Translations under genes and position numbers: made by a program
Shown here: positions 1 to 53,533 of the stretch, piece by piece
Layout: every line of letters starts with the position of its first letter
Numbering within the stretch: position 1 is the stretch's first letter
The notes under the pieces: model-generated
What the model was told of the DNA's origin: nothing
The model's input: only the letters and a program-made list of their open reading frames with translations
Database searches by the model: none
Source of the DNA: a virus
Strand: one strand, 5' to 3'
IMG/VR virus record: IMGVR_UViG_3300045988_183727
DNA: 64,000 bases

Positions 1-3000
1 GAACCTATCAAGGCAGCACACGATTATATCTGGGACATGATTAACCAGCAGGCACAGATTCCAAGTTTCGCTGTTGGCAGACCTACTCAGACATATAACG
101 ATTTCGAGTTGGTATGGGACGGCACTTCTTGGTCGTTGACAAGAACCGACACCAACAGAGTCCTGAGAAATTTTGACGACTTCGAGTTCAGCCTGCCCGG
201 TGTGAGCACCTTCCAGAGTGGAAACAATCTTACGATTACAGCCACGCCGGAAGCCGCTAAGAGTATGTTGAACGGCATTGTATCGTACCCCACCGAGGGC
301 AATGTGATTGACCCTGATAGCGTCAACGCTTACCTTCTCGTCGCGGGTGGCAGCAAGCAGGATTGCGTTGCTCTTAACGGCACCCCCGACCCTGTTACTG
401 CCTACGTCCGCGCCAAGGTCACAAAGACTACCGGCGATTTGAACATTGCCAAGACCTCCGAGGATGGCAAGGTAGGCGGCGTGAGTTTCACGGTCACGGG
501 CCCCAACGGTTACAGCAAGACTGTGACCACTGGTGCAAACGGTAAGATTGCCATTACCGATTTGCAGCCCGGTACTTATACCGTAACGGAGAATACACCC
601 GACAATTACATCCCGACGCAGCCCCAGTCCGTAAACATCGCAATCGGCGATTTTAAGACGGTGAACTTCAGCAACGTGCTGAAGAAGGGCGCCGTAAAGG
701 TGACTAAGACCTCAGAGGATGGTCAGATTGCTGGTCACACCTTCCGGCTGTCCGGCACTTCCGCAGCAGGTACGGCTGTCAATATGACGGCTGTTACGGA
801 TGCCAACGGCGTGGCTACCTTCAATAATGTTCCTGTGGGCAACAACTATAAGCTGGAGGAAATCAACACCGCAGCGAAGTATGTTGTTCCTGCGGTGCAG
901 GCTGGCGTGGTGGTTGAGTACAACACCAGCACCCCCGCTCAGTTTGAGAACAAGCTGGCTCGCGGCAATCTGAAAATCACGAAGACCTCCGAGGATGGCT
1001 TCGTGGCAGGCATGACCTTCCGGCTGACCGGTACGTCTATCTCCGGTGCAGCAGTCAATGAAACTGCTTCTACCGACGAGAACGGTGTCGTCATGTTCAG
1101 AGAAATCCTTATCGGTAATAACTATACCGTACAGGAAATCAACACCGCCGAGCGGTACGTTGTTCCCGCTGTCCAGAGCAATGTGACCGTCACGCTCAAC
1201 AACACCACCAGCTTGAACTTCCATAATAAGCTGGCTCGCGGCGCCGTTGAGGTTAAGAAGACCTCCGAGGACGGCAAGGTCGCTGGTATCACGTTCCGCC
1301 TGTCCGGTACTGCTATCAACGGCGAGACGGTGGATATGACCGCCGTGACCAATGACGCCGGAGTTGCCACCTTCAACAACGTTCTGATTGGCAATAACTA
1401 CAGCGTTGAGGAAGTGAACACGGCTGCCAAGTATATCGTTCCCGCTGTGACAAACGGCGTGAAGGTTACTCTGGATAACACCACCCCCGTGAATGTCTAC
1501 AACAAGCTCAAGCGCGGCGACCTGCGCGTTACCAAGACCTCTGAGGACGGCATGGTCGAGGGCATCACCTTCCGGCTGCATGGCACTGCCATCTCCGGCG
1601 ATGCTGTTGACCTGACTGCTACCACCAACGCTGACGGTATTGCCATCTTCAAGGATGTCCTGATTGGCGACAACTACACGCTGGAGGAAGTCGATACGGC
1701 GGTGAAGTATGTTATTCCTGCCGTGCAGACAGGTCTCGTTGTGGAGTTCCAGAAAGTTACCGACACCGCTGTGACTAACGTACTGAAGAAGTGGAAGGTC
1801 ACTGTGGAAAAGACGGACGCCGAGACTGGCAACATCCCTCGCGGCGATGGTGTCTTTGAGGGTGCTGTGTACGGTCTCTATAAGGGTGACGAACTGGTGA
1901 AGGAGTACGTTATCGGCAGTGATGGCAAGTTCACCACTGACGAGTACATCTGCGGCTATGATTACACCATCCGTGAAATCAAGGCGCCCACTGGCTATCA
2001 GATTGATGAGGGCGTGTATCGCGTTGGCGCCGAGCCGGAGAACTACCGTATCGAACACAACGTTGCTCCCCAGATTACCTCTGTCGAGGTCATCAATCGC
2101 GGCACATTCGCCATCACCAAGTTCATCTCCGACGGAACCTCCGGTCCCGCTAAGTTCGAGGGCGGTGCAGAGTTCAAGTATTGGCTGCAGTCCGCCGGCT
2201 CTTACGAGAACGCTAAGGATGACGAGCGCGGTATCCTGACGACCAACGACTTGGGTTACAGCGGCAAGTCTATCGAGCTGCCCTACGGCACCTATGTGGT
2301 GCATCAGACCAAGGCCGGCGATAAGGGTGCGGGGCTCGCGCCTGAGTTCACCGTTCTGGTTGGCGAGGTTGACCACGACCATCACGACTTGGCTGTCAAC
2401 AACGGACCTATTACCGCGTATCTGCGCGTTGTGAAGGTCGATGAGCTTGACGGCGAGGTCATTCCTTGGGGTGGTGCAAAGTTCCAGATTTACGACCCTG
2501 ACGGGAACAAGGTGTCCCAGAAGGTCACTTACCCCACGGTAACTTATATTGATACATTCGAGACAAATGATGAGGGTTATTTTGTGACCCCGCTGGTTCT
2601 GCCTTACGGCGAGAACTATCATCTGGTCGAAATCGTACCCCCGAAGGGTTATGAGCTGATGGATACCCCGATTACCTTCAGCGTTACGCCCGATACCATT
2701 TCTTTGGATGCCGAGACCGGTCTGGTGACTGTGAATATCATCGCCGAGGACGAGGCGGTGACTCCCAAGGTCAAGACTACTGCAACCGACAAGGAAGGCA
2801 ACAAGGAAATCGTTCCGGCCACCACCGTCACTATCGTCGATAAGGTGGAATGCACCGACGTTATCCCCAACAAGACCTATACGGTCGAGGGATATCTGGT
2901 GGTTAAGTCCACCGGCGAGCCTCTGCTGGACGCCGAGGGTAATCGCATTACCGCCTCTAAGACCTTCAAGGCTGAGGCCGACTTCACTGGCTTTGTGGAG

Positions 3001-4800
3001 CTGGAGTTCACCTTTGATGCGTCTCTGCTGGGTGGCGAGTCCATCGTTGTTTTCGAGGACCTGAAGCGCGGAAACCGTGTCGTTGCTACCCATGCTGACA
3101 TCAACGATGTTGACCAGACCGTTGTAATCCTGAACCCCAAGATTGGCACCACGGCCAAGAACGCTGTTGGCGGTAAGGAGTTCATGCCTCTGGCTGATGT
3201 GATTCTGGTGGATACCATCTCCTACGAGAATATGCCCGTGGGTAAGGAGTTCATCGCTATCGGTACGCTGATGGATAAGGCCACCGGCAAGCCTGTTACC
3301 GATGCCAACGGCGACCCCGTCACCTCTTACAAGGTGTTCACTCCCGAAGCTGCCACTGGTACGGTGGATGTGAAGTTCGTCTTTGACGCTTCTAAGCTGG
3401 CCGGCAAGTCTCTGGTGGTATTCGAGCGTGTGTATCTGGGTAACGAGATTGTTCCCGGCGACTCCAATAAACCCGTGTTTGTGAGTCACGAGGATATCAA
3501 CGATGAGGGGCAGACCGTCACCATCGGCGTTCCCGAAATCGGTACAAAGGCCGTGAACAACGCCACCAACGGCAAGACCCTCGACCCCGAATCCCGCGCT
3601 GAAATCAAGGATACCGTGTCCTATAAGGGCCTGATTGCTGGAGAGAAGTACACTGTCTCCGGTAAGCTGATGAACAAGGCCACCAACGAGCCCCTGAAGG
3701 ATAAGGACGGAAAGGAAATTACCTCCTCCGTTACCTTCACCGCTGAGGCGTCCGATGGCACCGTTGACGTGTTCTTCGTGCTCGATGCATCTCTGCTGCG
3801 TGGCCAGTCTATCGTTGTATTCGAGTCCCTGCAGTACAAGGACATTGAAATCGCAGTTCATGCCGACATCAACGATGTTGACCAGACTGTGACTGTCAAC
3901 AGCCCTGAAATCAAGACCACCGCTAAGAACGCTGCTGATGGCAAGAAGGAATTCTGGGCCTACAGCAAGGTCGAGCTGGTCGATACCGTGTCCTATAAGG
4001 GCCTGATTGCCGGCAATAAGTACACCGTAATCGGTAAGCTGATGGACAAGGCGACAGGTGAGCCTGTTCTGGGCCGCAACAACAAGGAAATCACCGCCAC
4101 TACCGAGTTCGAGGCCAAATCCTCTGACGGTACTGTGGATGTGAGTTTCGTGTTCGATGCATCCATTCTGGGCGGTAAGACGCTGGTCGTGTTCGAGACC
4201 CTGACCCGCAATGGCACTACGGTCGCAACTCACGCCGACATCAACGATGTTGACCAGACTGTGACCATCAAGCGCATCCCGACCTATTCCGGTCCGAGCA
4301 TTTCCACCACCGCTACCTTCGATGGCAAGGAGAAGAAGAACTCCGTTGCTGGTAAGAACGTAAAAATCGTGGACACCGTCAACTATACCGGCCTGACTGT
4401 GGGCAAGACCTACGTACTGGTTGGTACGCTGATGGATAAGGATTCCGGTGTTGCCCTCAAGGACAATAAGGGTAATCTGGTAACTGCTACTACGACCTTT
4501 ACGCCCAAGTCCTCCAACGGTGCTGTGAATGTTACGTTCAAGTTCGACGCATCCAAGCTGAAGGACCATGCGCTCGTGGTGTTCGAGACTCTGTATGAGG
4601 GTCGTGCTGAGGCGGGTAATGTCATTGCTACCCACAACGACCTGATGGACGGTGCTCAGACGGTGTATTTCCGCGACAGTGTCCAGACTGGCGATGAGGG
4701 CATCGGCCTGTGGGCCATGCTGGGTACGTTCAGTGCCATTGCTTGCTGCGGCACTGCGGTGTTCATGTTCCGCCGCAAGAAGGAGTATGGCGCCGAGTAA
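1..4800 (+). CDS. Giant cell-wall-anchored adhesin (5' end outside the window): SpaA/Cna-B-like Ig repeats, then VaFE / Thr-Gln ester-bond repeats, then a C-terminal SVQTG sorting signal
   Basis: Frame 1 is open from base 1. The track M at 37 has no signal peptide, so the N-terminus lies upstream. Repeats carry TKTSEDGxxAGxTFRLxGT...NYxxEExNTAxKYVxPAV, and later repeats end in SLVVFExL...ATHADINDVDQTV (HxDxxDxxQ). The tail is SVQTGDEG, a hydrophobic helix, then RRKKE. Confidence 0.9.
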   Translation, partial: EPIKAAHDYIWDMINQQAQIPSFAVGRPTQTYNDFELVWDGTSWSLTRTDTNRVLRNFDDFEFSLPGVSTFQSGNNLTITATPEAAKSMLNGIVSYPTEGNVIDPDSVNAYLLVAGGSKQDCVALNGTPDPVTAYVRAKVTKTTGDLNIAKTSEDGKVGGVSFTVTGPNGYSKTVTTGANGKIAITDLQPGTYTVTENTPDNYIPTQPQSVNIAIGDFKTVNFSNVLKKGAVKVTKTSEDGQIAGHTFRLSGTSAAGTAVNMTAVTDANGVATFNNVPVGNNYKLEEINTAAKYVVPAVQAGVVVEYNTSTPAQFENKLARGNLKITKTSEDGFVAGMTFRLTGTSISGAAVNETASTDENGVVMFREILIGNNYTVQEINTAERYVVPAVQSNVTVTLNNTTSLNFHNKLARGAVEVKKTSEDGKVAGITFRLSGTAINGETVDMTAVTNDAGVATFNNVLIGNNYSVEEVNTAAKYIVPAVTNGVKVTLDNTTPVNVYNKLKRGDLRVTKTSEDGMVEGITFRLHGTAISGDAVDLTATTNADGIAIFKDVLIGDNYTLEEVDTAVKYVIPAVQTGLVVEFQKVTDTAVTNVLKKWKVTVEKTDAETGNIPRGDGVFEGAVYGLYKGDELVKEYVIGSDGKFTTDEYICGYDYTIREIKAPTGYQIDEGVYRVGAEPENYRIEHNVAPQITSVEVINRGTFAITKFISDGTSGPAKFEGGAEFKYWLQSAGSYENAKDDERGILTTNDLGYSGKSIELPYGTYVVHQTKAGDKGAGLAPEFTVLVGEVDHDHHDLAVNNGPITAYLRVVKVDELDGEVIPWGGAKFQIYDPDGNKVSQKVTYPTVTYIDTFETNDEGYFVTPLVLPYGENYHLVEIVPPKGYELMDTPITFSVTPDTISLDAETGLVTVNIIAEDEAVTPKVKTTATDKEGNKEIVPATTVTIVDKVECTDVIPNKTYTVEGYLVVKSTGEPLLDAEGNRITASKTFKAEADFTGFVELEFTFDASLLGGESIVVFEDLKRGNRVVATHADINDVDQTVVILNPKIGTTAKNAVGGKEFMPLADVILVDTISYENMPVGKEFIAIGTLMDKATGKPVTDANGDPVTSYKVFTPEAATGTVDVKFVFDASKLAGKSLVVFERVYLGNEIVPGDSNKPVFVSHEDINDEGQTVTIGVPEIGTKAVNNATNGKTLDPESRAEIKDTVSYKGLIAGEKYTVSGKLMNKATNEPLKDKDGKEITSSVTFTAEASDGTVDVFFVLDASLLRGQSIVVFESLQYKDIEIAVHADINDVDQTVTVNSPEIKTTAKNAADGKKEFWAYSKVELVDTVSYKGLIAGNKYTVIGKLMDKATGEPVLGRNNKEITATTEFEAKSSDGTVDVSFVFDASILGGKTLVVFETLTRNGTTVATHADINDVDQTVTIKRIPTYSGPSISTTATFDGKEKKNSVAGKNVKIVDTVNYTGLTVGKTYVLVGTLMDKDSGVALKDNKGNLVTATTTFTPKSSNGAVNVTFKFDASKLKDHALVVFETLYEGRAEAGNVIATHNDLMDGAQTVYFRDSVQTGDEGIGLWAMLGTFSAIACCGTAVFMFRRKKEYGAE
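454..1732 (+). repeat. In-frame tandem Ig-like (Cna-B/SpaA-type) domain repeats within the adhesin gene
   Basis: About five ~93-aa units, each opening with (T/K)KTSEDG and containing TFRLxGT, GNNY and NTAxKY(V/I)VPAV. Borders are approximate. Confidence 0.7.
2659..4672 (+). repeat. In-frame tandem VaFE / ester-bond (Cpe0147-like) domain repeats within the adhesin gene
   Basis: About seven ~100-aa units, each with TTA(K/T)..., VDTVSYxGL, GxLMDKATGEP, VxFxFDAS, LVVFE and HxDINDxxQTV. Borders are approximate. Confidence 0.7.
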
Positions 4801-19629: not shown

Positions 19630-19717
19630 GGAGAGGTGGCCGAGTGGTTGAAGGCACCGGTCTTGAAAACCGGCGATGCGAAAGCATCCGTGGGTTTGAA
19701 TCCCACTCTCTCCGCCA
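19630..19717 (+). tRNA. tRNA-Ser (anticodon TGA), CCA encoded
   Basis: Acceptor GGAGAGG/TCTCTCC, D-arm GTGGCCGAGTGG, anticodon loop CTTGAAA, long variable arm, T-loop GGTTTGAATCC. Confidence 0.9.
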
Positions 19718-19728
19718 AAAAAAAACAA

Positions 19729-19859
19729 GTACGGACGGTATAACCGGAATTAACGCCTGTGGAGATGCATGGTCGTCGCGGAAGCAGGAATACTCTGTTG
19801 GCTGGCAATCACGTGAGAGGTGACGACCAGCACCTTGGGGGAACTGAATACCTGTGCTG
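19729..19859 (+). ncRNA. Omega-RNA-like scaffold, copy A (structured RNA family, 5 copies)
   Basis: GTACGGACGGTATAACCGGAATTAACGCCTGTGGAGATGCATGG...GCTGG-CAA-TCAC-GTGAGAG-GTGA-CGA-CCAGC...GGGGGAAC plus the linker TGAATACCTGTGCTGG. The central hairpin covaries among copies. Confidence 0.7.
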
Positions 19860-20053
19860 GGTATACACCACCCAGAAATAGCAGGGTACTATACCACAAG
19901 ATGCCGCACGTTGAATTTGAGTGGCGGTATACACCACCCAGAAAAAAACAGGGTACTATACCATCTCATTGCACACTGGCATATACCCGTTATCGTAAAG
20001 GATATGTCACGGTTAGGGGTATACACCACCCCGAAATAACAGGGTTGTATACC
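19860..20053 (+). repeat. Hairpin-repeat mini-array A (3 repeats; CRISPR-like layout)
   Basis: Repeats at 19860-19895, 19926-19962 and 20018-20053 (GGTATACACCACCCnGAAATAACAGGGTTGTATACC). The spacers are 30 and 55 nt, and the latter contains a degenerate repeat. Confidence 0.7.
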
Positions 20054-20098: not shown

Positions 20099-20117
20099 GT
20101 GTGCAATGATTGCACAC
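20099..20117. repeat. Perfect palindrome GTGTGCAATGATTGCACAC preceding scaffold B (the same palindrome is at 50304-50322)
   Basis: Identical 19-nt palindrome upstream of scaffolds B and C. Confidence 0.8.
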
Positions 20118-20125
20118 TTAAAGAC

Positions 20126-20250
20126 GTACGGATGGTACAGCCGGAATTTACGCCTGTGGAGACGAACTCCGTCGTAGAAGCAGGAACTTCCCATGGCTGA
20201 ACACCGCGTGAGAGGCGGTACAGCACCGAGGTGAGAGCACCTTGGGGAAC
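20126..20250 (+). ncRNA. Omega-RNA-like scaffold, copy B (divergent, no hairpin array)
   Basis: GTACGGATGGTACAGCCGGAATTTACGCCTGTGGAGACG...GCT-GAACA-CCGC-GTGAGAG-GCGG-TAC-AGC...TTGGGGAAC. It ends 30 nt before the ATG at 20281. Confidence 0.65.
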
Positions 20251-29855: not shown

Positions 29856-29992
29856 GAAAAAGACAATCACTGCCCGAAAAGGGAAGTGATTGTCTGAATT
29901 TATGATGTGACTTGAAAAACGGAGATAAAACTCCTTATAAAAATATCTTCGTAATTATACTATTATACTACCACGTTTCGCTATTTTGTCAA
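29856..29992 (-). promoter_or_regulatory. Promoter-leader-terminator cassette 1
   Basis: Minus strand: TTGACA (29992-29987), 16 nt, TAGTAT (29970-29965), then TATAAT-like (29959-29954), GGAG-n6-CTCC GTTTTT, and the terminator AGACAATCACTTCCC/GGGCAGTGATTGTCT + T5 (29895-29856). Confidence 0.75.
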
Positions 29993-47989: not shown

Positions 47990-48300
47990 TAACAGCGTGG
48001 ACAGGGCAAGAAAGGCTCGTTCGAAGGGCTCGTGCCTAAAATGACAATATTCTTGCGATTGTAAGAATAAGCGCCTAAATTGCCCGTCCCGTTTTCTTCT
48101 TTCTTTAATTACACTCATAAGCACAATAAAGTCAGCTCCCTGAGGGAAGTGTGCGGGAGTTGCTTCGACTTTCGCGTTGTTCTCCATGCGGGGAGGTTCT
48201 GGCGGTTCGAGTCCGCACGACGCGCCTTCTGTTTTCGCTGCTTCTATCTTCACCTCCGTCTTTTTAACGAGCAGCGGACACAGAAACATCTCTCAATATG

Positions 48301-48379
48301 ATAGCGTAGCATAACTGGTAATGCCGTACCTCTCTCACAGGTAACGATATGTTGGTTCAACTCCAGCCGCTATTGCCAG
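48301..48379 (+). tRNA. Atypical tRNA-like gene, probable anticodon CTC (Glu), CCA encoded
   Basis: Acceptor GATAGCG/CGCTATT, D-arm GCAT-AACTGGTA-ATGC, anticodon stem TACCT/AGGTA with loop CTCTCAC, T-arm GTTGG-TTCAACT-CCAGC. There is one extra nt between the D and anticodon stems and a 7-nt variable loop. Confidence 0.5.
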
Positions 48380-48484
48380 CCGGCGTTCTACCCACCCCGC
48401 CGACATCAACTCTCTTCGGCGCTGGCGGCCTCCGTGCAGACGGGATTACACGTGATAAGCGGAGGCTGCCAGCACCACCAAAAT

Positions 48485-48560
48485 GCTGGTGTAGCTCAGT
48501 AGGCAGAGCGGCGCACTCGTAACGCGCAGGTCGTGGGTTCGACCCCCACCGTCAGCTCCA
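48485..48560 (+). tRNA. tRNA-Thr (anticodon CGT), CCA encoded
   Basis: GCTGGTG...TAGCTCAGTAGG...anticodon loop CTCGTAA...GGTTCGACCCC...CGTCAGC-T-CCA. Confidence 0.85.
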
Positions 48561-48652
48561 TTCCATACTCATTCTCCTTCAAGTGAAGCCCCCGTGTAAC
48601 AGGTCTTTTGAAAAGTGCTTTCAGCCTCGTTGTGCGGGGGCTTCACGACTAT

Positions 48653-48728
48653 GCTGATGTAGCTCAGTTGGCAGAGCGGCGGATTTGTAAACCGCAGGTC
48701 GGGGGTTCAAGGCCCTCCATCAGCTCCA
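48653..48728 (+). tRNA. tRNA-Thr (anticodon TGT), CCA encoded
   Basis: GCTGATG TAGCTCAGTTGG...anticodon loop TTTGTAA...GGTTCAAGGCC...CATCAGC-T-CCA. Confidence 0.85.
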
Positions 48729-48763
48729 TTAAAACCATGTGCTTTTGTGGTGTTTTTATATGC

Positions 48764-48840
48764 GCGGATGTCGTCTAATTTGGTGAGACACCAGCCTTCC
48801 AAGCTGGTCATTGCGGGTTCGAGTCCCGTCGTCCGCTCCA
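48764..48840 (+). tRNA. tRNA-Gly (anticodon TCC), CCA encoded
   Basis: GCGGATG...anticodon stem CCAGC/GCTGG with loop CTTCCAA...GGTTCGAGTCC...CGTCCGC-T-CCA. Confidence 0.85.
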
Positions 48841-49229: not shown

Positions 49230-50288
49230 ATGCCAACTACATTTCAAGCGTTTAAGTATCGCATTTACCCGACTGATGAGCAGGTCGAAATCATTGAAAA
49301 GACTTTCAAGTGCTGCCGGTTTGTGTGGAACCATTTCCTTGAGCGAACCTCCAAAATCTATGACCGTCGGCAGGAAAAGATGACGACCTTCGACTGTATG
49401 AAGGTTCTCACGGAGATGCGGGAGCGCTGGCCTTGGCTTGCGGACTGCGGCTGTACGGCAGAGAGATATGCCATCATTGATTTGTTTGAGGCGCGAAAGG
49501 CGTTCTTCCGCCGCATTAAAGCGGGGGAGAAGCCCGGTTATCCCAAATTTAAGGGCGCGTCCCATCCGACACAGAGTTTTACGACCGCTGGTACTATCTA
49601 TGTGACGGACGATTACATTCAGGTTCCGTTTGGAGGACAGTATCAGAAAATCAACAAGCTCAGGCGAGGGACGGGGCGCCCCATCGAAGGGTCTCCCCGC
49701 GAGGTCACTATTTCTCGGTCTGCTACCGGAAAATACTGGGCATCTGTCTGCTGTAAAGTAGAGCGAGACACGCTGCCTATTGTGGACGGCGAGGTGGGAA
49801 TCAGTCTCGGCCTGAAGGAGTTGGCTATTGACAGCAACGGCGTTCACTATGAGAACCCGAAGCATCTGAGCAAGTCTGCAAAGCGGTTGGCACGTGAGCA
49901 GCGGCGTCTATCCCGCAAGAAGAAGGGCTCTGTCAACTACGAGAAGCAGCGGCGCAAGGTAGCCGGCGTCCATGAGCATATTGCCAATCAGCGCAATGAC
50001 TACCGGCATAAAATCAGCCGTGAACTTGTCAACGCAAACCAGCTTATTGCCGTTGAGAAGGTGGCCGTTAAGCCCTTAGTTGAGGGCAATGAGCAGGCTA
50101 AAAGCATCCTCGATGCCGGCTGGTCTGAACTTACCGGTATGATAAAGTATAAGGCGGACTGGGCTGGACGCACTCTGGTGGACGTAGATACCGCCACCGT
50201 AGCACCGGAAGCCAAGCATGATGAGGCACTGGCACAGGTCGTGCTGTCCGAAGGTCAGCGCATGGCTTCCGAGCAGAAGCCTGCCTAA
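49230..50288 (+). CDS. TnpB-like protein, predicted nuclease-dead and C-terminally truncated (TldR-like); could alternatively be a decaying tnpB
   Basis: N-terminal FKYRIYPTDEQ (OrfB/TnpB). RuvC-I reads VGISLGLK where the family consensus has GIDLG (D to S). RuvC-II has IAVEKV. The ORF stops after KADWAGRTLVDVD, before the zinc finger and RuvC-III. ATG at 49230 follows aaaggacgg. Confidence 0.8.
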   Translation: MPTTFQAFKYRIYPTDEQVEIIEKTFKCCRFVWNHFLERTSKIYDRRQEKMTTFDCMKVLTEMRERWPWLADCGCTAERYAIIDLFEARKAFFRRIKAGEKPGYPKFKGASHPTQSFTTAGTIYVTDDYIQVPFGGQYQKINKLRRGTGRPIEGSPREVTISRSATGKYWASVCCKVERDTLPIVDGEVGISLGLKELAIDSNGVHYENPKHLSKSAKRLAREQRRLSRKKKGSVNYEKQRRKVAGVHEHIANQRNDYRHKISRELVNANQLIAVEKVAVKPLVEGNEQAKSILDAGWSELTGMIKYKADWAGRTLVDVDTATVAPEAKHDEALAQVVLSEGQRMASEQKPA

Positions 50289-50303
50289 AGCCGAGCGAGG
50301 AAA

Positions 50304-50322
50304 GTGTGCAATGATTGCACAC
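50304..50322. repeat. Palindrome GTGTGCAATGATTGCACAC (second copy)
   Basis: Identical to 20099-20117. It lies between the tnpB-like stop and scaffold C. Confidence 0.8.
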
Positions 50323-50344
50323 ATTGCCAAGGAAATAAAAACGA

Positions 50345-50473
50345 GTACGGACGGTATAGCCGGAATTAACGCCTGTGGAGATGCATGGTCGTCGTGGAAG
50401 CAGGAATACTCTGTTGGCTGGTAGTCACGTGAGAGGTGGCACCAGCGCTTTGGGGAACTGAATACCTGTGCTG
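50345..50473 (+). ncRNA. Omega-RNA-like scaffold, copy C (cognate position 57 nt downstream of the TnpB-like gene)
   Basis: Same family as A, B, D and E. Central hairpin GCTGG-TAG-TCAC-GTGAGAG-GTGG-CA-CCAGC, ending GGGGAAC plus TGAATACCTGTGCTGG. Confidence 0.75.
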
Positions 50474-50563
50474 GGTATACACCACCCGGAAATAACAGGG
50501 TTGTATACCAATTCATGGCGTCTCCTTTTGGTATACACCACCCGGAAATAACAGGGTTTTACC
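50474..50563 (+). repeat. Hairpin-repeat mini-array C (2 repeats, 20-nt spacer)
   Basis: Repeats at 50474-50509 and 50530-50563. The spacer is AATTCATGGCGTCTCCTTTT. Confidence 0.7.
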
Positions 50564-50663
50564 ATTCGTAATTATAGTTCTTCCCTCCGCTGTGTGGAGC
50601 GTTTTGTCGAAATGACAAAACATTCCTCTTAAATTCTTAAAAACAAGAAAGGAAATAAAGAAT

Positions 50664-51791: not shown

Positions 51792-51811
51792 CGCTAAATA
51801 CCTAAAAGCAA

Positions 51812-51942
51812 GTACGGACGGTATAACCGGAATTAACGCCTGTGGAGATGCATGGTCATCGTGGAAGCAGGAATGCTCTGTTAGCTGGTTTTCATGTGAG
51901 AGATGATGCCAGCAGCTAAGGGAACTGAATATGCCTGTGTTG
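51812..51942 (+). ncRNA. Omega-RNA-like scaffold, copy D
   Basis: Central hairpin GCTGG-TTT-TCAT-GTGAGAG-ATGA-TG-CCAGC (TCAT/ATGA covaries with TCAC/GTGA). Linker TGAATATGCCTGTGTTGG. Confidence 0.7.
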
Positions 51943-52155
51943 GGTGTATGAGGCCCTGAAATGACAGGGGTGTATACCATATAATCTGTCGCTTGAGGAG
52001 ACAGGCGTATAGAGCCCAGAAATAACAGGGTTGTATACCCCTTAACCGCGCTCCAACTTTCAATCCTAAGGTGTATAAGGGCCTGAAATAACGGGGTGAT
52101 ACCTCAGTTATTCCTTTTAGGTACATAACGGGCTAAAACAACAGGGTAGTGTACC
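51943..52155 (+). repeat. Hairpin-repeat mini-array D (4 repeats)
   Basis: Repeats at 51943-51978, 52005-52039, 52071-52103 and 52121-52155. Spacers are 26, 31 and 17 nt. The 3' arm CAGGGTTGTATACC is conserved while the 5' arm varies but keeps pairing. Confidence 0.7.
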
Positions 52156-53252: not shown

Positions 53253-53258
53253 AAACGA

Positions 53259-53390
53259 GTACGGATGGTATAACCGGAATTAACGCCTGTGGAGATGCAT
53301 GGTCGTCGTGGAAGCAGGAATACTCTGTTGGCTGGTAATCATGTGAGAGATGATACCGGCACCTTTGGGGAACTGAATATGCCTGTGTCG
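53259..53390 (+). ncRNA. Omega-RNA-like scaffold, copy E
   Basis: Central hairpin GCTGG-TAA-TCAT-GTGAGAG-ATGA-TA-CCGGC, whose U-G pair is only allowed on the + strand RNA. Linker TGAATATGCCTGTGTCGG. Confidence 0.7.
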
Positions 53391-53533
53391 GGTATATAGA
53401 ACCCTGAAACGACAGGGTTGTGTATCACAGAATAACTGCGGCAGCGGCATATATGGCTCTGAAACAACAGGGTTGTATACCGCATAAAAAAGGCTATGGT
53501 GTGTAATACCCTGAAATAACAAGGTTGTGTACC
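53391..53533 (+). repeat. Hairpin-repeat mini-array E (3 repeats)
   Basis: Repeats at 53391-53426, 53447-53481 and 53499-53533. Spacers are 20 and 17 nt. Confidence 0.7.

Follow-up and report, generated by a model that had tools for sequence, protein, structure and literature searches.

In ISDra2, as in other canonical cases, the omega-RNA overlaps the 3′ end of its tnpB. Among type V effectors, Cas12c and Cas12m bind DNA and do not cut it, and phages are known to encode CRISPR arrays against rival elements, as ICP1 does against PLE. Closest to the locus studied here are the TldRs, TnpB-like nuclease-dead repressors with a degraded RuvC site, often a C-terminal loss of the zinc-finger and RuvC region, and a guide RNA encoded downstream (Wiegand et al., bioRxiv 10.1101/2023.11.30.569447 / Nature 2024); the original screen for them required two or more changed RuvC acidic residues (10.1101/2023.11.30.569447). 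TranCs, as summarised in PMC13565253, are described as nucleases (Jin et al., Cell 2025). Here we describe a TldR-like gene and its guide-RNA scaffold in a stretch of 64,000 nucleotides (nt), one strand, of IMG/VR record IMGVR_UViG_3300045988_183727, called the window throughout.

An earlier note on this DNA had placed, at 50200-50400, the remnant of a lost zinc-finger/RuvC-III coding region in the +1 frame. The RuvC-III part of that claim stands, in frame 0 and at 50214-50285; the +1 frame does not carry it, and the zinc finger is gone. Very probably, the similarity that had been noticed comes from three adjoining pieces, namely a frame-0 tail of the gene, a spacer with a palindrome and a scaffold derived from an omega-RNA, which mimic a decayed C-terminus in the wrong frame.

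We propose that a stretch of about 28 codons was deleted in frame from an ancestral TnpB, which would have removed the whole CCCC zinc finger, and that the RuvC-III/C-terminal helix stayed in frame, being still translated (50200-50288) under purifying selection. The segment 50289-50338 would then be an inserted spacer with a conserved palindrome, probably used in guide-RNA expression or processing, and the scaffold from 50339 would descend from the omega-RNA portion downstream of the tnpB stop. Together with five scaffolds and repeat-spacer arrays, the protein most likely forms an RNA-guided DNA-binding repressor, whose homology and anatomy are shown below and whose repressing activity is proposed by analogy with TldR.

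A TldR-like gene fixed in a gut phage family

49230-50288, + strand: TldR-like (TnpB-derived) gene of 352 amino acids (aa), assigned from Pfam, alignments, fold and synteny

This gene is a TldR-like derivative of TnpB, fixed in a family of gut phages. In its product Pfam finds HTH_OrfB_IS605 (1.6e-17) and OrfB_IS605 (3.1e-25), that is, the N-terminal HTH_OrfB plus the OrfB_IS605 (WED/REC/RuvC) core, as in TnpB. The TNB/Zn-ribbon family (PF07282) is matched only at profile positions 1-24 of 60, with 18.1 bits against a cut-off of 26.3 bits. The AlphaFold2 (AF2) model of the protein has a mean predicted local distance difference test score (pLDDT) of 89.7, and its best Foldseek match is ISDra2 TnpB 8EXA (E 3e-27, template-modelling score, TM, 0.85). 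The sequence alignment with ISDra2 TnpB spans residues 6-322, and LaTranC is also among the structural and sequence matches. Its identity to gut-phage IS605-type TnpBs is ~50%; blastn of 49230-50600 against GenBank phages gave no match.

The RuvC-I aspartate is replaced by Ser192 (GISLGL), at a column that is nearly invariantly Asp in alignments of 16 and of 95 homologues. Glu276 is retained, and the zinc finger is gone with all four of its cysteines. In RuvC-III, D331 stands on the Asp column and the NAAxNI motif is lost, so that the D-E-D triad is not intact. Since the RuvC-I Asp is a Ser, the protein is predicted to bind DNA without cutting it.

The order RecG-like gene, tRNA cluster, TldR-like gene is constant in at least 27 IMG/VR phage contigs. 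In the window, the cluster directly upstream holds four tRNAs (Glu, Thr, Thr, Gly; 48300-48840). Unlike this fixed gene, the intact 372-aa tnpB of three related loci (L031-L033) lies at three different sites and has a defined right end (RE). One of these, L032:1501-2812 (IMGVR_UViG_3300045988_181874), is an intact IS605-type tnpB with its omega-RNA and an RE end ...AAAAGGTTGAATATCC; in a sister phage its insertion separates the RecG-like gene from the tRNA cluster, and the window lacks it. Protein P0003 looks like a recombinant of an L031-L033-type TnpB (N-terminal part) and the TldR-like gene. Four relatives (L019-L022) carry a 348-aa variant with a tail ending in ...MASEGY and a stop. A second truncated lineage (P0022/P0026), found for instance at L111:1387-2460, has 320 aa and VTIRRDD in its RuvC-I region; these two proteins end in ...TATLNVS and ...PATLNAG, each followed by a stop.

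Zinc-finger loss and the frame-0 tail

50190-50213, + strand: deletion junction, TATVAPEA (residues 321-328) in place of FFPSSQxC (MAFFT, phmmer)
50214-50285, + strand: RuvC-III/C-terminal helix remnant in frame 0, KHDEALAQVVLSEGQRMASEQKPA (hidden Markov models, HMMs; Smith-Waterman; tblastn; substitutions)
within the reading frame that runs to 50285, + strand: frame-0 tail segment KHDEALAQVVLSEGQR

The alignments indicate that the zinc finger was lost via an in-frame internal deletion of about 28 codons, for which no frameshift is needed. Following ...GRTLVDVDT, a 28-column gap spans the whole CxxC...CxxC zinc finger, and both the gap and the placement of the tail are identical in two independent MAFFT alignments (16 and 95 homologues). 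Intact TnpB continues after the junction with ~28 residues, among them the four zinc-finger cysteines, which are missing here; when the protein is aligned by phmmer to TnpBs of solved structure, the alignments end at residues 320-322. In tblastn, the intact TnpB P0005 gives one high-scoring segment pair (HSP), which covers all but its first and last residue (2-369 of 370) and lies in a single frame at 49236-50270. Because this alignment runs through 50270 in one frame, the deletion would be internal and in frame and not a frameshift. The present gene had been said to have arisen by frameshift or truncation; the loss of the zinc finger holds, and the frameshift falls with the single-frame HSP.

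Past the junction, KHDEALAQVVLSEGQRMASEQKPA pairs with (H)DRDENAAKNILSEGLRLLA of intact TnpB, D331 being on the catalytic Asp column, and its part KHDEALAQVVLSEGQRMAS (50214-50270) with HDRDENAAKNILSEGLRLLA. The match is collinear and ends a few residues from the end of the profile, and its LSEGxR(M/L) run is identical in P0010 and P0012. Scored with C-terminal HMMs made from the last ~62 aa of the 16 nearest or of 106 intact relatives, the tail reaches 5.7-6.2 bits, with at most 0.05% of shuffles as high. In Smith-Waterman comparisons with the 3′ ends of 33 intact tnpB genes, it scores on average 27.7 (maximum 39) against the in-frame readings, compared with means of 18.4 and 16.9 against the two out-of-frame readings; shuffled tails score 16.0 +/- 1.9, and 0 of 500 reached the observed value.

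Substitutions among 27 phage relatives single out the same frame: the tail varies at 12 sites, of which 10 are third codon positions in frame 0, and of its 10 variable codons 8 stay synonymous when read in that frame. From this bias it follows that frame 0 is translated to its stop, and it is under purifying selection up to the TAA at 50286. AF2 models residues 331-349 as a helix with a pLDDT of about 90. The comparisons thus point to a real, if modest, RuvC-III remnant in frame 0 at 50214-50285.

A simple truncation after VDVDTAT could also be imagined, the 24-aa tail being unrelated (3′ untranslated-region read-through or new) and its RuvC-III likeness coincidental. We consider it unlikely, even though P0022 and P0026 end right after the shared 'TAT' junction, without a tail, and the match of the tail is limited to 17-20 aa at about 40-50% identity, with 6% of dinucleotide shuffles scoring as high when all three frames of 288 nt are searched without restriction. 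The tests made on the peptide itself, both by HMM and by Smith-Waterman, speak against coincidence, as do in-frame scores well above the out-of-frame ones, the collinearity of the match, the run shared with P0010 and P0012, and purifying selection.

The tail-less lineage, the shortness of the match and the result of the unrestricted search weigh at the same time against the reconstruction proposed above, and other points go in the same direction. Since P0022 and P0026 end at the junction, the tail could have been regained or secondarily lost. The AF2 helix is not independent, the input alignment having already held the tail placement. D331 may remain a catalytic-type Asp, only one residue of the triad being demonstrably lost. 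Finally, the proposed function of the palindrome and spacer, as well as the repressor activity, is drawn by analogy. The significance of the tail match rests on testing the translated tail itself, and we regard the evidence for it as good, not overwhelming.

The +1 frame and the omega-RNA scaffold

50218-50424, + strand: +1-frame open reading frame (ORF) of 68 aa with an ATG start, from the program's ORF list
50289-50338, + strand: stop-to-scaffold spacer of 50 nt, not in intact loci (stop-to-scaffold distance 3-21 nt there)
50304-50322 and 20099-20117: perfect palindrome of 19 bp, GTGTGCAATGATTGCACAC, part of a 25-nt element common to both sites
50339-50473, + strand: scaffold C, matched at 50339-50427 by covariance model (CM) R1 (49.5 bits, E 6.9e-9)
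50347-50388, + strand: the 'TDGIAGINACGDAW' stretch, made up of hairpin 1 (50348-50362), conserved linker GAAUUAACG and one strand, the 5′ one, from each of two stems
50372-50376 with 50400-50404: long-range stem CCUGU/GCAGG; inner stem GAU/GUC
19723-19815, + strand: scaffold A (CM R1 48.1 bits, E 1.4e-8)
20120-20212, + strand: scaffold B, a divergent copy preceded by the palindrome (CM R1 51.7 bits, E 2.3e-9)
51806-51896, + strand: scaffold D (CM R1 E 2.4e-9)
53253-53345, + strand: scaffold E (CM R1 E 1.5e-9)

The ORF at 50218-50424 is an accidental open frame of this sequence variant, neither a gene nor a relic. In the +1 frame, a TAG at 50200-50202 is followed by HRKPSMM...TDGIAGINACGDAW, open to the TAG at 50422-50424. 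The first TAG and the reading after it, HRKPSMMRHWHRSCCPKVSAWLPSRSLPKAERGKCAMIAHIAKEIKTSTDGIAGINACGDAW, are as the earlier note had transcribed them; the gene itself ends at the TAA at 50286-50288 in frame 0, not at that TAG. The spacing from SCC to KC is 19 aa as stated, and that from KC to D is roughly so, with 14 aa in place of 15.

As a degraded TnpB C-terminus, the +1 peptide finds no support: it scores at chance level, matches no Pfam family at E<=10 and enters no frameshift-tolerant alignment. The C-terminal HMMs (16 / 106 relatives) give it 0.9 / 0.2 bits, scores that 14% / 24% of residue shuffles match, as do 6-10% of 73-aa translations drawn at random from the window. For the frameshift-tolerant alignment, we used our own implementation in three frames, with frameshift penalties of -6, -10 and -15 and a profile of the nearest relatives. 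On 50193-50480 it contained no +1-frame segment, the best one being the frame-0 tail, and the alignment anchored in the gene ended at 50192; the earlier note had itself named the lack of such an alignment as what would speak against the +1 reading. Full-length and C-terminal HMMs run over all three frames scored only in the frame-0 body and tail. Likewise, in tblastn with C-terminal fragments of six intact proteins, every segment in 50200-50290 was in frame 0, and the sole other match was 11 aa of noise in the scaffold.

Several other candidate relics were considered and rejected. The best segment on 50289-50480, a mixed-frame PSEEVCNDC, was matched by 10% of shuffles. In the +1 frame, neither MMRHWHRSCC aligned to sVReWtCpeC nor ACGDAWSSWK aligned to CGaqns rises above noise, and the former uses DNA already explained in frame 0. 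The frame-0 read-through CNDCTHCQGNKNEYGRYSRN, stop, RLWRC, taken as a zinc-finger relic (CxxC...RxWxC-like), scored 2.4-3.1 bits, reached by 4-7% of shuffles.

Neither does the +1 frame persist in evolution. It is interrupted by stops in most close relatives because the SCC-to-TDG distance differs: 108 nt in the window and 110, 114, 115, 116, 117 or 118 nt in relatives. Within 50203-50285, 11 codons of the +1 frame vary, 10 of them non-synonymously, and substitutions in 50339-50424 have no codon periodicity. That the ORF is a genuine small overlapping gene, to which its ATG start and 68 open codons might point, therefore has a vanishingly small probability in our estimate: it is not kept in relatives whose neighbouring genes are 87-99% identical, its substitutions are non-synonymous and aperiodic, it matches no family, and it lies mostly inside a structured RNA.

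The origin of this DNA is seen in relatives with an intact TnpB of 370-372 aa, which include L031-L033 of the same phage family and others elsewhere (L002, L028, L035...). There the true DRDxNAAxNI codons stand in the ORF and a post-stop module is present in the same loci. This module, TACGG..GG..CCGGAAUUUACGCCUGUGGAG...GAAGCAGGAA, begins 3-21 nt after the tnpB stop in at least 22 intact loci, and its TACGG..GCCTGTGGAG part is positioned after the stop, outside the ORF, in at least 22 loci. Because module and motif coexist in the same intact loci, the module is not a decayed RuvC-III motif. SCC, KC and DGIAGINA, read earlier as relics of CxxC, CxxC and DxNAAxNI, thus belong to DNA homologous to the post-stop omega-RNA, and the true motif is kept upstream in the relatives. 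DGIAGINA-type DNA is non-coding and follows the stop in at least 22 loci that also hold the true motif, which is the outcome of the comparison with intact relatives that the earlier note had suggested.

The scaffold is an element of ~130 nt with five copies in the window (19723, 20120, 50339, 51806, 53253). RNAalifold, run on 22 post-stop regions, folds them into a 5-bp hairpin plus the long-range stem CCUGU/GCAGG, with compensatory changes in 12 of 17 pairs. CM R1 was built solely from these post-stop regions of 22 intact tnpB loci. Searched on both strands, it yields exactly five matches in the window, which are the five scaffolds, each over the full model length, and nothing beyond them in the 128 kb searched. 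The covariance model was needed to establish this homology: stringent local DNA alignment as well as single-sequence nhmmer and blastn of the post-stop regions gave marginal E-values for each copy. Rfam has no family for the scaffold, only tRNAs being matched, and tblastn around scaffolds A, B, D and E found no further tnpB remnants.

Model position 1 aligns to 50339, and the stand-alone scaffolds A, D and E share no common sequence upstream of about -8 from TACGG; the scaffold for these reasons starts at ~50339 and corresponds in its whole length to post-stop omega-RNA. Scaffold A starts 5 nt past tRNA-Ser (19630-19717), which suggests co-transcription and tRNA-type processing. The segment 50347-50388 is conserved through RNA structure and not as former codons, because hairpin 1, the linker and two stem strands lie there. 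The statement that every scaffold keeps TDGI(A/T)GINACGDAW is correct for four of the five (19731, 50347, 51814, 53261) and not for B (20128), which reads TDGTAGIYACGDEL. Derivation of the scaffolds from the 3′ end of tnpB can be retained in the sense of descent from its omega-RNA, and not in the sense of former coding DNA, the module being post-stop in intact loci.

These observations also bear on a frameshift near 50200 that would have put the ZnF/RuvC-III codons into the +1 frame and made the scaffolds copies of former coding DNA. It could appeal to the +1 frame being open over 50203-50421 in the window, to the 4 of 8 positions common to DGIAGINA and DxNAAxNI, and to the overlap of canonical omega-RNAs, e.g. 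that of ISDra2, with the tnpB 3′ end. However, the +1 similarity does not exceed chance, and in at least 22 intact loci that keep the real motif the homologous DNA follows the stop and codes for nothing; moreover, the frame is broken in most relatives, and 50214-50285 is accounted for in frame 0. We therefore find such a frameshift highly improbable, and retain the in-frame deletion followed by an omega-RNA-derived scaffold.

The 19-bp palindrome in the spacer precedes scaffolds C and B only and is invariant across relatives. Their indels flank it, with 7-10 nt in the 5′ spacer portion just upstream and 1-3 nt on the other side. A sigma-70 scan of the + strand from stop to scaffold found no canonical promoter. 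In L111, TTGACA-N18-TATAAT is at the equivalent position, between stop and scaffold. By analogy with this promoter, the spacer and palindrome may act in guide-RNA expression or processing, as a promoter/operator or a processing hairpin.

Two variant arrangements concern the same region. In L111, the TTGACA-N18-TATAAT overlaps a palindrome, and the scaffold stem is compensated (GCCCGUGGAG...GCGGGAA). In L019-L022 (around 5030; 3896-3996), no scaffold lies directly downstream of the gene; a scaffold copy is found immediately upstream instead.

More generally, an open frame running over a structured guide-RNA gene can look like a protein motif; what tells the two apart is positional homology to intact relatives. 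For this locus the analysis fixes the gene anatomy, with an in-frame zinc-finger loss, a RuvC-III helix that is kept and a scaffold from about 50339. Such gene and scaffold boundaries are needed for expressing or engineering the effector with its guide.

Arrays, candidate targets and known systems

19860-20053, 50474-50583, 51943-52155 and 53391-53533: repeat-spacer arrays
50474-50583, + strand: array C, with repeat 50474-50509, spacer C1 (50510-50529, AATTCATGGCGTCTCCTTTT), degenerate repeat 50530-50563 and a terminal guide
51943, 52004, 52070, 52120: the four repeats of array D
53391, 53446, 53498: the three repeats of array E

Each scaffold is followed by a CRISPR-like array of ~36-nt hairpin repeats with short unique sequences between them. 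The window holds 12 repeats of about 36 nt, and the repeat is the last omega-RNA hairpin. Taking the window arrays with loci L001 and L003-L027, we counted 70 distinct spacers among 27 loci, 15-38 nt long with a mode of 30. They differ widely among phages with 87-100% identical effectors, even at 99%, and many occur in one contig only; spacer turnover is accordingly rapid, as near-identical effectors carry mostly different spacers.

Spacer C1 is the exact antisense of a ribosome-binding site plus ATG: it matches, at 20 of 20 positions, where an excisionase-like (HTH_17) gene with a tyrosine integrase next after it begins, on a contig of an Oscillospiraceae metagenome-assembled genome (MAG; L121), and it matches the gene start in both L121 and L122. 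The other exact matches of C1 are three and fall in soil taxa, a number compatible with the one or so expected by chance. Spacers of relatives hit the same region, from L005/L011 (30 nt, 1 mismatch), L007 (32 nt, 1 mismatch) and L016 (27 of 30), and those of L013, L023 and L017/L019 also match the HTH_17 regulatory region. Besides C1, at least six spacers of relatives are tiled over L121:707-823 and L122:7020-7337. These coordinates cover the HTH_17 start and the DNA before it, a regulatory region of ~120-320 bp, in the MAG contig and in a 28-kb IMG/VR element. Spacer E2 (53482-53497) matches 15 of 16 positions inside the integrase gene (L121:1375-1389). No consistent transposon-adjacent motif (TAM) emerged from the left-end (LE) flanks of L031-L033 or from the protospacer flanks (ACTTG, TTCCG, AATGG, AAAGG). 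Because spacers of different relatives converge on one regulatory region, the matches point, in silico, to silencing of the excision/integration switch of another integrative element.

The terminal guide of array C (TTCGTAATTATAGT, 50564-50581) has matches inside the window, with 12 contiguous nt and 13-14 of 16 overall, at 29947, 36323, 40310 and 43349. These sites belong to a promoter-like repeat of 166 nt, present in four copies and driving minus-strand operons, and fall in its -10/start region. Alternatively, 50571-50598 may itself be a paralogous minus-strand promoter (TCCACA-N16-TATAAT).

Elsewhere in the window, 430-4460 consists of tandem protein-coding repeats (families D5, D6 and D9; e.g. 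...KTSEDGK...), which suggests a large repetitive protein of surface or tail-fibre type.

The locus could be a CRISPR-like silencing system that is carried by phages, lacks nuclease activity and evolved on its own from TnpB and its omega-RNA, a proposal to which we give even weight for and against. Such a system would consist of a zinc-finger-less effector with a degraded RuvC, five scaffolds, and arrays made from the duplicated last omega-RNA hairpin; its fast-changing 30-nt spacers would be directed at the excisionase/integrase regulatory region of another integrative element, for instance a rival prophage or satellite. The literature that we searched holds no description of an array-served, nuclease-free, TnpB-derived system of this kind. 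A TldR-like protein with multi-spacer phage arrays would bear on how array guidance evolved from omega-RNAs, as well as on RNA-guided warfare between mobile elements.

With IS200/IS605 TnpB (ISDra2, PDB 8EXA/8H1J) the protein shares its fold, and the scaffold has its homologues in the omega-RNAs that intact relatives carry. Unlike these transposon proteins, it has no zinc finger and a Ser at the RuvC-I Asp, and there are no insertion-sequence ends or signs of mobility (27 contigs, one site). The conserved omega-RNA module of its clade begins after the stop and not inside the ORF, unlike in ISDra2.

Like TldRs, the window gene is a phage-fixed TnpB homologue in which the RuvC-I Asp became Ser and the zinc finger was lost; it has an omega-RNA-derived guide downstream, and the predicted guides match the promoter/5′ region of a candidate target gene in silico. 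It differs in coming from a separate lineage, in showing an internal in-frame deletion that kept the RuvC-III helix and the Asp column in place of a terminal truncation, and in having five scaffolds with strain-variable arrays against one fixed guide. One of its three RuvC acidic residues is demonstrably changed, against the two or more of the TldR screen.

With type V CRISPR and TranC systems the locus shares the variable-spacer array; an active RuvC nuclease is not supported, given Ser192 and the missing zinc finger. TranCs likewise combine a TnpB-sized effector with CRISPR-like repeat-spacer units from an omega-RNA; set against that account, the RuvC site in the window is degraded, the zinc finger is gone, and the arrays follow full scaffold copies. 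Array-programmed silencing without cleavage, predicted here, would be shared with Cas12c and Cas12m, from which the window effector differs in being much smaller and of independent origin; cas adaptation genes were not seen, no search aimed at them having been made. As in ICP1 against PLE, phage arrays carry spacers matching another mobile element. If the proposal of a CRISPR-like silencing system is true, the locus would stand, as a natural intermediate, between TldRs with a single guide and type V systems that are programmed by arrays.

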